A stretch of DNA of 64,000 bases from Felis catus (lineage: Eukaryota), in the NCBI RefSeq assembly GCF_018350175.1, contig NC_058368.1:187240001-187304000 (forward strand), in the 5' to 3' direction. Made by a program: the position numbers and the translations under genes. The notes beneath the pieces are model-generated. The model saw nothing but the letters and a program-made list of their open reading frames with translations, made no database searches and was not told the DNA's origin. Positions 16,160 through 55,423 of this stretch are shown here, piece by piece. Every line of letters begins with the position of its first letter. Within the stretch, counting starts at the first letter, position 1.

Positions 16160-17060
16160 TTACTTTAATTTTTTATATATGTAATTTATTATCAAGCTAG
16201 CTAACATACAGTGTAGTGTATACAGTGTGCTCTTGGTTTGGAATGTAGATTCCTGTGATTCATCACTTACATACAACACCCCAGTGCTCATCCCAACAAG
16301 TGCCCTCCTCGATACCCATTTCCCATTTCGTCCATTTCCCCCATTTCCCCCCTCCCCCAAGTCCTCCCACCCATCAACCCTCAGTTTGTTCTCTGTATTA
16401 AGAGTCTCTTATGGTTTACCTCCTTCTCTGTTTGAAACTATTTTTACCCCTTCCCTTCCCCTATGGTCTCCTATTAAGTTTCTCAAGGTCCACATGTGAG
16501 TGAAAACATATGATATGTCTTTCTCTGACTATTTCATTGGCATAATAACCCTCCAGTTCCATCCACATTGTTGAAAGTGGCAGGATTTCATTGCCAAAAC
16601 AGCAGAACAGATCAATGAATCTAAGAGCCATATTTTTGAAAAAATAAACGAAATTGATAAACCCCTATCCAGACTTCTCAAAAAGAGAGAGGACCCAAAT
16701 GGATAAAATCACAAATGAAAGAGGACATATCACAACCAACATTACAGAAATACAAACAATTATTATAGAATACTATGAAAAATTATATGTCAACAAACTG
16801 GACAACCTGGAGGAAATGGACAAATTCCTAGACACCCACACACTACCAAAACTCAAATGGGAAGAAATAGAAAATGTGAACAGACCAATAACCAGTGAAG
16901 AAATTGAATCAGTTACCAAAAATCTCCCAACCAATAAGAGTCCTGGATCAGATGGCTTCCCAGGGGAATTCTACCAGCCATTTAAAGCAGAGTTAATACC
17001 TATTCTTCTCAAACTATTCTAAAAAATAAAAACAGAAGGAAAGCTTCTGGACTGATTTTA
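16160..17060 (-). mobile_element. Carnivore L1 insertion with 5' inversion
   Basis: 16160-16592 is antisense L1 3'UTR/ORF2 end; 16593-17060 is sense ORF2 ([21 protein letters not shown]...[14 protein letters not shown]). Confidence 0.88.
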
Positions 17061-35065: not shown

Positions 35066-35741
35066 TCTTTTTTTTAATTTTTTATTTATTTATTTATTTT
35101 TTATATATATATGAAATTTATTGACAAATTGGTTTCCATACAACACCCAGTGCTCATCCCAAAAGGTGCCCTCCTCAATACCCATCACCCACCCTCTCCT
35201 CCCTCCCACCCCCCATCAACCCTCAGTTTGTTCTCAGTTTTTAACAGTCTCTTATGCTTTGGCTCTCTCTCACTCTAACCTCTTTTTTTTTTTTCCTTCC
35301 CCTCCCCCATGGGTTCCTGTTAAGTTTCTCAGGATCCACATAAGAGTGAAACCATATAGTATCTGTCTTTCTCTGTATGGCTTATTTCACTTAGCATCAC
35401 ACTCTCCAGTTCCATCCACGTTGCTGCAAAAGGCCATATTTCATTTTTTCTCATTGCCACGTAATATTCCATTGTGTATATAAACCACAATTTCTTTATC
35501 CATTCATCAGTTGATGGACATTTAGGCTCTTTCCATAATTTGGCTATTGTTGAGAGTGCTGCTATGAACATTGGGGTACAAGTGGCCCTATGCATCAGTA
35601 CTCCTGTATCCCTTGGATAAATTCCTAGCAGTGCTATTGCTGGGTCATAGGGTAGGTCTATTTTTAATTTTCTGAGGAACCTCCACACTGCTTTCCAGAG
35701 CGGCTGCACCAACTTGCATTCCCACCAACAGTGCAAGAGGG
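35066..35741 (-). mobile_element. Young feline L1, 5'-truncated (ORF2 C-terminus + 3'UTR + poly-A)
   Basis: Uninterrupted minus [17 protein letters not shown]...[13 protein letters not shown]...WMELESVMLSEIS; perfect 14-bp TSD tggaacaacattct at 35052-35065 and 35742-35755. Confidence 0.96.
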
Positions 35742-36397
35742 TGGAACAACATTCTATACAGCCCAGTCACCTCAGGCCAAAGTTTTCTAGGAAAGAAACT
35801 ATCTCCTTTGTACTACCTATTACTCTTCTATGAGGTTCTGATCACAAATGAGGTTCTTCAAAATATCAGTACCCAGTACCTGAAAATTTTATAGCTAGGG
35901 AACACCTTTCCCTTTAAGACATACTTTATATACTATCAATTTCATTCCTTACAAAAAGCTGGTGAAAAAGTAGAATAAGACTAGTTTTCCTCATATTACA
36001 GTGAGGAAACTGAAGACCGGGAAGGTAAACAGACAGTTCAGCATTAGGAACAAGCCACAGATAGCATTCTGACCTCTGGTGTCATAGCCCACAGGACCAT
36101 ACTTTTCCTGATAGGCCCAACAAGGTCATCTGCACCCTCCCCCCAACCTTAAATGCTTTCATGGTACTTGTCACAGTGTTAGTTGTATATTATTTATATA
36201 TTTATATGATTATTTGCTTTACGTCTCTTACTCCTAAACATGTGGTTTGTAGGGATTGAACCTATTTTCCTCACATTGTATTCCATAATCTACCTTGGTT
36301 GGATGGGTGAACAAGTGGGTGAGCCAATATACCATATATTTTCTTCTGACCATAACAACTTCATGTGTCTGTTTTAGACCATAGCTTCCTGCCAGAA

Positions 36398-36672
36398 ATG
36401 GCACTCTCAGTGGACTCATCCTGGCACCGGTGGCAGTGGCGAGTCAGAGATGGCCTCCCCCAGTCTCCATCAGAAGCCACACCACTATTGTCTGAAGAGA
36501 AGAAGAGGCAAAGCTACAACCTGATACAACAACGGGTCGTCTTCCCCAACAACAGCACGTGCCACCGAGATTGGGCAGAGATCACCAGGAGATACTCCGG
36601 CAACAGAATCTGCACGACCAAATACACCTTTCTCACTTTCCTGCCTCAGAATCTCTTTGAGCAGTTTCATAG
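36398..36672 (+). CDS. ATP10B: ATP10B canonical first coding exon (N-terminal cytosolic tail up to start of TM1); exon probably begins at 36378
   Basis: Translates [19 protein letters not shown]...[25 protein letters not shown], recognisable as the ATP10B N-terminus with the P4-ATPase N-terminal motif. Acceptor ttttag at 36372-36377, ATG at 36398, donor AG|gtacac at 36672/36673; 275 coding nt, phase 2. Confidence 0.96.
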
Positions 36673-37669
36673 GTACACAACCACTTGGCCAAACGATACA
36701 CGCTTTAACCAAGTATTTGCCAGTATTTCTGAAACAAAGATGCTGCCCTCTGGGTTACCTATCCTTTAATATCCAAATGCATGTACCTTAAAAAGACTTG
36801 TCATTCATTTGCTCATTCATTCATTCAATAAATATCAGATTCTACTGTGTTAGGCTATGTGTTCACTGCTGGAGATACATGAGGGGGAAAAGAGAGACAT
36901 AGTCTTGACTATATTTTCTCATGAAAGAGACAGACATTAAATTTAAGAATTATATAAACTGATGTCAAATTAGAATTTAAATAGATACTTCTAAAAAGAG
37001 GTATATGGTGATGTTAGAGTAAATAAGAGGGAGATCTGGGCTAGTTAAGAAAGTCAGGAAAGACTTCCAGGAATAAGTGACAATTGAAATAATCTGAAAG
37101 AAGAGAATGCATTAACTTGGTAAAAACAGAGAGAAGTCAGGAAGGGAGCCAGGAGAATGTCCCTTCCAACAGACCTTCATGTGCAAAGGCACAATGGCAA
37201 AAGGATGCTAGATGCACTTGGAAAAGTTAAAAATGTAAGCCATAATTTCGAGATGATACATGCAAGATCGTATTATAATTATAAAGCAAAATATACACTT
37301 AGATATCATCCTAAATTTTGTAATTATCATTACAAGTTGTCATTTATTGAGAAACTACTATGACTGAGAACGCTCTATTACATATGTAACAAATATAATC
37401 CTATGTAATATTTATAAGAGCCCTTTAAAGTACATAGTACTAGCCCCATTTTACACAAGTTGAAACAAGCTCCAGAAAGTCACACAACTAATAAACAATT
37501 TGAGTTTGAATATAGCTGGATCTGGCTTCAGAGCCCTTACCATAATTCGAGGTCACCCTAAAAGAGAATGTCATTTTAATTGATAAAGGCCAACAATAGG
37601 GAAGAAATAGTGTGGAAAGTATATTTCCTTCTCCATGGTTTTCACTCACACTTTTCTTGTCCCTTCCAG

Positions 37670-37864
37670 ATGGGCTAATCTGTATTTCCTATTCCTGGTG
37701 ATTCTCAACTGGATGCCCTCCATGGAAGTTTTCCACAGAGAAATCACCATGTTACCATTGGCTATTGTGCTGTTCCTCATCATGGTGAAGGATGGCATGG
37801 AAGACTTCAAGAGATATCGTCTTGATAGAAAGATCAACTGCTCCAACATCTGGATATATGAAAG
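37670..37864 (+). CDS. ATP10B: ATP10B canonical second coding exon (TM1-TM2)
   Basis: Pyrimidine tract plus ttccag|A acceptor; encodes [65 protein letters not shown]; donor AAG|gtaaaa; 195 nt, phase 2-2, in frame with the previous exon. Confidence 0.97.
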
Positions 37865-38489: not shown

Positions 38490-38805
38490 AGATCCCTGTG
38501 GGTGACGTCTACATTCCAATAGGTGGAGTCCCAACAAGTAGAAGGAAGTGACCTGACAAGTGCACACCTGTTCTCTGCCAGCTTTTTCCTTGTCATTTCT
38601 CCCCCAGCATTTGTAAACCAGCCTTTTGTTTTTAATTTTCCTTTTGAAAGAAGAGAGAGAAATTTCCAGCAAAGAACGCAAATAAAAGATATCAGGGACG
38701 TGACTCACTGGCAGCTGAACAATGGAACTGATTAGGGGAAAAAACTCTTTTACGGAGAACTCACATGCCATCCTATGAGAATTCAAGAAACAGGATTGAG
38801 CAGAG
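38490..38805 (+). promoter_or_regulatory. Putative internal promoter / 5'UTR of the alternative N-terminal exon
   Basis: Repeat-free stretch with CRE-like TGACGTCT (38503), CCAAT (38516), AP-1 TGACTCA (38701) and E-box CAGCTG (38712); also a strong acceptor-like site ending at 38607. Motif inspection only. Confidence 0.35.
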
Positions 38806-39191
38806 ATGGGAAAGGAAGTCAAAAGAAGGCAGAAAAGGAAAGAAGACAAGAAACGCATAGTAATCTCCAATCTGCCCTTTGAAGTATGGTCCTACAAGGA
38901 GAATCCCAACAGGCATTATTGTGGGAATCAAATTAAGACCAGCAAGTACACCGTGTTGTCCTTCATACCCAAGAACATCTTTGAACAGCTACACCGGTTT
39001 GCCAATCTCTATTTTCTGGGCATTGTGGGTCTGAATTTTGTTCCCGTGGCCAATGCTTTCCAGCCTGAGGTAGGTGTGATACCAATCTGTATCATCCTGG
39101 CGGTCACTGCTATAAAGGATGCTTGGGAAGACCTCCGAAGATGCAAATCTGATAAAGTGATCAATAACCAAGAATGTCTCATCTATAGCAG
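38806..39191 (+). CDS. ATP10B: ATP10B alternative N-terminal coding exon (single exon encoding tail + TM1 + TM2; ATP10A-like)
   Basis: Strong Kozak GAGATGG; in-frame TGA just upstream (38797-38799); 128 open codons + 2 nt (MGKEVKRRQKRK...GNQIKTSKYTVLSFIPKNIFEQLHRFANLYF...LNFVPVANAFQPE...KDAWEDLRR...LIYS-R); donor CAG|gtaaag in phase 2, compatible with the exon at 55219. Confidence 0.88.
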
Positions 39192-55218: not shown

Positions 55219-55423
55219 AAAACAGCAGAGCTACGTGAAGAAGTGCTGGAAGGATGTGCGTGTGGGCGACTTCATCCAAATGCAATGCAATGAGATCATC
55301 CCAGCAGACATACTCCTGCTCTTCTCTTCAGACCCGAATGGGATCTGCCACCTGGAAACTGCCAACCTGGATGGAGAGACAAACCTCAAACAAAGGCGTG
55401 TTGTGAAGGGCTTCTCACAGCAG
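55219..55423 (+). CDS. ATP10B: ATP10B shared coding exon, actuator domain with DGET motif
   Basis: Encodes [68 protein letters not shown]; P4-ATPase LDGETNLK signature; acceptor ...cccaag|A, donor CAG|gtaagg; 205 nt, phase 2-0. Confidence 0.96.

Follow-up and report, generated by a model that had tools for sequence, protein, structure and literature searches.

Two alternative front ends of cat ATP10B, a likely inheritance from a two-headed ancestor of ATP10A, ATP10B and ATP10D

The window analysed here, a stretch of 64,000 nucleotides of the domestic cat (Felis catus) genome, carries the 5' coding part of felid ATP10B. Two modules for the N-terminus and the transmembrane segments TM1-TM2 precede the first shared exon (Table 1). 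They are referred to below as NW and NF, the names of the two module types being taken from the TM1 dipeptide.

Table 1. Features of the 5' coding region of ATP10B (positions in the window)
Feature	Position	Strand	Description
Canonical (NW-type) module, coding exon 1	36398..36672	+	Cytosolic N-terminus to EQFH-R; translation and phase-2 donor
Dileucine signal E26-A-T-P-L30-L31	36473..36490	+	Counterpart of human ETTPLL, which directs ATP10B to late endosomes/lysosomes (function: PMC7530900, partial text)
Phase-2 intron, 997 nt	36673..37669	+	Inside the Arg codon after EQFH; same position in cat ATP10D and bird ATP10B
Canonical module, exon 2	37670..37864	+	TM1 (N105-W106), loop, TM2; phase-2 donor
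Short upstream ORF	38722..38778	+	Likely decayed remnant of the longer marsupial/platypus N-terminus; homology by eye
Alternative (NF-type) module, single exon	38806..39191	+	Own Met, TM1 (N77-F78), loop with P87, TM2; phase-2 donor
First shared exon	55219..55423	+	Actuator domain with DGET; takes either module in frame

In the NF exon, the ATP10B N-terminus and TM1-TM2 are encoded a second time, intact and without an intron. The exon opens with an ATG at 38806, extends over 386 nt and ends at a phase-2 donor (AG/GTAAAG); the preliminary description had reported that it is unsplit at EQLH-R, where the canonical module is interrupted by the 997-nt intron, and these coordinates were confirmed. 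Both modules splice in the same phase and in frame to the shared exon starting at 55219. Our recount of identity between the two cat cores, 42 of 91 positions (46%), agrees with the roughly 47% over 92 aa given earlier. The NF exon thus has its own start, homology to the canonical head and a shared donor phase, as expected of a duplicated first coding exon. Its N-terminus is basic and lacks the dileucine signal, its module contains the PhoLip_ATPase_N domain PF16209 (76 bits in the protein P0001, which is identical to the window exon), and comparison of the cat and bird copies indicates purifying selection (pN 0.18, pS 0.84).

Two possible acceptors upstream of the NF exon, at 38581 and 38607, are compatible with splicing from shared 5' UTR exons. 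We infer that the exon serves as the first coding exon in place of the canonical one, probably under a promoter of its own, and that the NF isoform is expressed in the cat. At 38722-38805, an in-frame ATG lies ahead of the NF start, and its frame runs into a stop. Segments in two reading frames look like parts of the longer NF N-terminus of marsupials and platypus; in placentals this extension has apparently degenerated into the upstream ORF. All sampled words of 38700-39191 were present in 20 of 24 listed runs, two recorded as RNA; this was not counted as support. Other open frames in the window, at 16648-17019 (+) and 35332-35766 (-), belong to ordinary repeats, presumably LINE-1 ORF2 fragments. 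At other genomic sites, the shared exon has weaker matches (L035, L036 and L037, two of them with an internal stop), which are other P4-ATPase exons or broken copies. None of the 20 matches in a sequence search of the PDB was an ATP10 structure.

The exon itself is already known. Among the matches listed (the best 120 of 362 passing, from 512 candidates), the best was RefSeq ATP10B isoform X2 (P0001), 100% identical, and human NF isoforms were also present. The same exon is annotated in RefSeq isoforms X2/X4 and in cluster 2328 of mutually exclusive exons of Hatje et al. 2017 (PMC5740500; this and the other publications are cited here from partial text), where an 83-aa part of it was listed as mutually exclusive with canonical exon 2, present in placentals and absent from marsupials. 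These authors reported different use of the two exons across human tissues (P about 2e-15); one row of their supplement pairs the NF exon with oesophagus and its canonical partner with colon, under a column whose meaning is undefined (PMC5740500). The published placental-only age is contradicted by our matches, since the listed NF-type ATP10B proteins come from placentals, marsupials, platypus, turtles, crocodile, birds, lizards, amphibians and arowana. The exon therefore reaches well beyond a shallow mammalian clade, in agreement with the earlier view that it is ancient and not felid-specific. Most of the vertebrate evidence in this analysis consists of predicted gene models. In species other than cat, 16 Logan proteins of 1423-1444 aa carry the NF head on contigs of 4.5-7.1 kb, a size that points to spliced transcripts as their source. 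At a bird locus (L062), an NW second exon, an NF exon and the shared exon follow each other in the same order as in the cat.

According to Hatje et al. 2017, the NF exon would be an internal exon of placental origin that replaces only canonical exon 2, as listed for cluster 2328 (PMC5740500), and a few gene models do join canonical exon 1 to the NF exon. In the cat, however, the proposed acceptor has no pyrimidine tract, the NF exon reads through the position that would match the partner acceptor, and such a join would duplicate the TTKY-EQFH stretch. The NF exon's own Met and N-terminus are conserved, and its presence in marsupials, platypus, reptiles, birds, amphibians and fish argues against a placental origin. 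We consider this reading very unlikely, and return to the NF exon as an alternative first coding exon. Both modules, NW first, also occur together in 15 public gene models, 10 of ATP10B and 5 of ATP10D, which are probably annotation errors. These fused models have four N-terminal helices (P0004, P0005, P0006, P0010, P0017, P0018, P0019, P0021, P0047, P0059, P0060, P0063, P0070, P0075 and P0123).

The distribution of heads among the paralogues was examined next to that in ATP10B. In line with the preliminary description, the module of cat ATP10A is a single NF exon and that of cat ATP10D a two-exon NW module; the ATP10D intron interrupts the same codon as that of ATP10B, in the same phase. The cat alternative module is identical to ATP10A at 54 of 91 positions and to ATP10D at 47, and the canonical module to ATP10D at 54 and to ATP10A at 41; averaged over the sampled sequences, NF modules of ATP10B share 65% identity with those of ATP10A and 61% with those of ATP10D. 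When a fish NF module served as the query, many of the matches were teleost isoforms named "ATPase VD". Of eight same-species NF/NW pairs of teleost ATP10D, four have bodies that are 99.9-100% identical and modules identical at 49-51 of 91 positions; the bodies of the remaining four are 90-98% identical. In Coilia grayii, two models with consecutive locus tags (P0246 and P0220) respectively end with the NW and begin with the NF module of ATP10D, and in a sturgeon ATP10D model (P0234) some of the NW module appears twice together with the exons that follow it, which probably reflects faulty assembly or gene prediction; this model was treated as an artefact.

A profile search revealed NW-type modules in catshark and elephant shark. 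The catshark module matches the N-terminal part of a full-length Heptranchias "ATPase VA" at 81% identity, and in the body tree this NW-headed protein joins cat ATP10A with support 100. No NF module was seen in sharks and no sequence from lamprey or hagfish turned up, so shark ATP10A may be NW-only. In the same tree (37 rows), ATP10A, ATP10B and ATP10D each form one clade at 99-100 whatever the head, and the body of the NF-headed P0001 falls within the ATP10B clade with support 100. The vestigial second modules envisaged earlier did not turn up in the cat regions searched: there was none in 90 kb around ATP10D, including its 17-kb intron, none in 110 kb around the first exon of ATP10A (best stray match 7.6 bits), and no NW remnant in 240 kb of ATP10A when shark NW modules served as queries.

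The module tree rests on 91 columns and on 63 rows hand-picked from roughly 400 modules. In it, all 22 NW modules of vertebrates, whether from ATP10A, ATP10B or ATP10D, fall into a single clade (100/99); the 25 NF modules make up a second one with moderate support (89/74). Within the latter, the ATP10B (100/96) and ATP10A (97/94) copies are separate clades, ATP10D has an NF clade of its own, and the ATP10A and ATP10B copies are weak sisters (84/27). The AU test rejects pairing of the two ATP10B modules (p=0.005) and of the two ATP10A modules (p=0.002); for ATP10D the result is borderline and the pairing formally unrejected (p=0.0515). When 19 entry-gate columns were omitted (41 rows), the NW clade persisted (98/94), the NF clade was weak (76/83) and pairing of the ATP10B modules was still rejected (p=0.015). 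In these trees the modules group by type and not by gene. The history of the heads thus cuts across that of the bodies, as it should if the module had been duplicated before the genes split. The two-headed ancestral gene proposed in the preliminary description is accordingly supported. The description of the alternative module as specifically ATP10A-like did not hold, as support for a sister relation to the ATP10A copies rather than to those of ATP10D is weak (84/27).

Invertebrate and bird loci came from one metagenome scan that gave 78 loci, most of the others being short or belonging to other P4-ATPases. Two modules were found in three of the 78: the bird locus mentioned above, and L058 and L059, which are 99.8% identical and were counted as one organism. 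In L058, one shared exon is preceded by two modules that lie about 7 kb from each other, lack an intron and both end in a phase-2 donor. This exon is closest to P0370 (51/63), and P0370 and P0300 form a lineage between amphioxus and vertebrates (98/93); this being the position of tunicates, the tree suggests that the L058 host is probably a tunicate. The second L058 module falls with vertebrate NF in the tree (93/91) and has the same loop Pro, the first keeps Lys as in NW, and the module order matches that of vertebrates. Both have Phe at the W/F site, an independent duplication in this lineage is unrejected (AU p=0.41), and the link to NF vanishes without the gate columns. We favour, if only somewhat, a single origin of the two heads before the tunicate-vertebrate split. 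No second module was present within 10 kb upstream at four other invertebrate loci (L069, L074, L075 and L079), which are single-headed. In amphioxus, three of the four listed isoforms were compared, and one module is common to all three. Pro in the TM1-TM2 loop also occurs in other invertebrate ATP10 modules (P0287, P0305, P0324, P0331, P0332, P0343, P0352 and P0380), reflecting either convergence or further two-headed genes. Invertebrate modules in the scanned loci, in a scan that favours unsplit exons, run through EQFH without an intron. This indicates that the intron was gained in vertebrate NW and that the intron-free state is ancestral. The missing intron is thus no sign of kinship with ATP10A, nor of retrocopying.

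Two other histories were weighed against this background. If the module had been duplicated separately in each ATP10 gene, the likeness within NW and within NF would be convergence at the lipid gate. The unrejected ATP10D pairing (p=0.0515), the moderate support of the NF clade and the recurrence of the loop Pro among invertebrates agree with such a scheme, but the ATP10B and ATP10A pairings are rejected, the NW clade persists without the gate columns, and ATP10B and ATP10D have the same module order and a common NW intron. Separate duplications are largely refuted and, in our estimate, highly improbable. Insertion of a retrocopied or transposed ATP10A fragment into ATP10B, the less favoured alternative of the preliminary description, would account for the single exon, for the highest cat identity being to ATP10A (54/91) and for the weak sister relation of the ATP10A and ATP10B copies (84/27). 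Yet the ATP10B NF clade lies outside that of ATP10A, which rejects a retrocopy, the intron-free state is ancestral, and the NF module of ATP10D, a clade of its own, occupies the same position in its gene. The retrocopy is refuted by this last point, and we assign it a negligible probability.

The two heads differ in their sorting signal, which is an addition to the earlier reading of the locus. Okamoto et al. showed that ETTPLL targets ATP10B to late endosomes, that full-length ATP10B with L30A goes to the plasma membrane, that the acidic residue of the signal is dispensable and that ATP10B stays in the ER when given the N-terminus of ATP10A (PMC7530900). Among 12 canonical-type ATP10B rows, ExxPLL occurs in nine, from arowana to camel; the stretch is missing from the other three. 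The motif [DE]xxxL[LI] was found in 0 of 104 NF N-termini, and some LL/LI pair in 12 of 104, human included. Given the absence of the dileucine signal from the NF head, the NF isoform of ATP10B is predicted, with fair confidence, to reside at the plasma membrane. The LL/LI pairs, the dispensable acidic residue and the ER location of the chimera speak against this prediction. An acidic dileucine-like motif occurs in 11 of 104 teleost ATP10D NF N-termini (P0220, P0222, P0223 and P0225-P0232), and the address logic in fish ATP10D may differ.

The modules also contribute to the lipid entry site, which is formed by TM1, 2, 4 and 6 (PMC12424579). In alignments, N77-F78 of the NF module falls on the GA motif of Dnf1. 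In ATP10D, N110 and W111 are required for glucosylceramide (GlcCer) transport, their counterparts in ATP10A being N98 and F99 (10.1101/373712). Eleven core positions divide NW from NF across the three genes, and five of these fall in the region that runs from the exoplasmic end of TM1 through the loop to where TM2 begins; W versus F and K/R versus P are fixed in all 21 NW and all 25 NF modules. That the NF isoform prefers another lipid is plausible, about as likely as not. It may be that the two-headed history is right and that the switch alters expression and location only, with lipid preference unchanged. The clear difference in sorting signal and the differing use of the two exons among human tissues (PMC5740500) would suit this reading, as would the position of the TM4 and TM6 lipid determinants, including a key TM4 Gln, in the ATP10 body common to both heads (10.1101/373712). 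Moreover, canonical ATP10B already flips both phosphatidylcholine (PC) and GlcCer (PMC7244618), PC flipping being reported also in PMC11775268 and one cell assay giving PC only (PMC7244618, PMC11775268), so that NW does not equal GlcCer-only. The eleven dividing positions, with their concentration near the TM1 exoplasmic end, the loop and the TM2 start, and the role of TM1-2 in the entry gate (PMC12424579) speak against it. An effect on expression and location alone is quite possible, although we lean slightly away from it.

The explanation that we prefer is that two tandem, in-frame front ends (N-terminus plus TM1-TM2) serve one ATP10B pump body and would have been inherited from a two-headed ancestor of ATP10A, ATP10B and ATP10D. 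One module duplication would predate the split of the three genes, which we hold to be very likely; fish ATP10D with both heads and shark ATP10A with NW indicate that the design is likely older than the split. Later, ATP10A would have lost NW in those bony vertebrates that were sampled, and NF would have disappeared from ATP10D in the cat and probably in further tetrapods. Choice of the NF head would drop the lysosomal sorting signal and might retune the lipid entry gate. This scheme as a whole, with its function predicted, is likely; the history is well supported. The earlier statement that ATP10A and ATP10D each kept one module is correct for the cat but not since the duplication, teleost ATP10D having both and shark ATP10A having NW: head losses are late and lineage-specific. 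By the same token, the proposed isoform subfunctionalisation stands as regards an ancestor with both heads and complementary forms in the cat (ATP10A NF, ATP10D NW), and fails as regards a partition soon after gene duplication that would explain retention. More tentatively, the cassettes may have arisen once, before the tunicate-vertebrate split, and may set GlcCer (NW) versus PC (NF) as well as location; mammalian ATP10D and ATP10A would then be the two frozen halves, and ATP10B would still make an unstudied, ATP10A-like flippase of the plasma membrane.

Duplicated alternative first exons are of a known kind. UGT1A and the clustered protocadherins place homologous variable first exons on a constant body, and in teleost mitf isoforms are partitioned between duplicates, the paralogues keeping complementary forms. 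ATP10 differs in having two cassettes only, each with part of the transporter substrate path, and in the loss of heads long after the gene duplications. Whereas cluster 2328 is internal, placental-only and 83 aa long (PMC5740500), the unit described here is a whole first coding exon, which occurs across the bony vertebrates and is matched by equivalent modules in ATP10A and ATP10D. The switch resembles the N-terminal chimeras of Okamoto et al. 2020, in which an N-terminus swap or L30 mutation shifts ATP10B between late endosomes and plasma membrane; those constructs exchange the cytosolic N-terminal region only, while the natural switch also replaces TM1-TM2, and the examined text does not mention a natural isoform (PMC7530900). 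ATP11C-a/-b are likewise P4-ATPase isoforms with different sorting signals, but they vary in the C-terminal tail only, without a duplicated membrane module (PMC11775268). The word "isoform" is absent from the examined text of PMC10910339. The common ancestry of heads across the three genes, the two-headed fish ATP10D, the NW-headed shark ATP10A and the invertebrate locus did not turn up in the literature searched, which takes in few subscription journals.

The results correct the published placental-only age of the exon and explain the recurrent fusion of two modules in gene models. In the study linking ATP10B to Parkinson's disease, the 1461-aa form was used and the 26 exons of NM_025153 were resequenced (PMC7244618), so the NF isoform may have escaped assays, antibodies and variant screens. 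A 2024 review considers the entry-gate features behind GlcCer-only ATP10D and PC-preferring ATP10A unclear (PMC12424579). The isoform pairs with identical bodies, in ATP10B and in teleost ATP10D (NW/NF), together with the NW-headed shark ATP10A, make this gate question directly testable.
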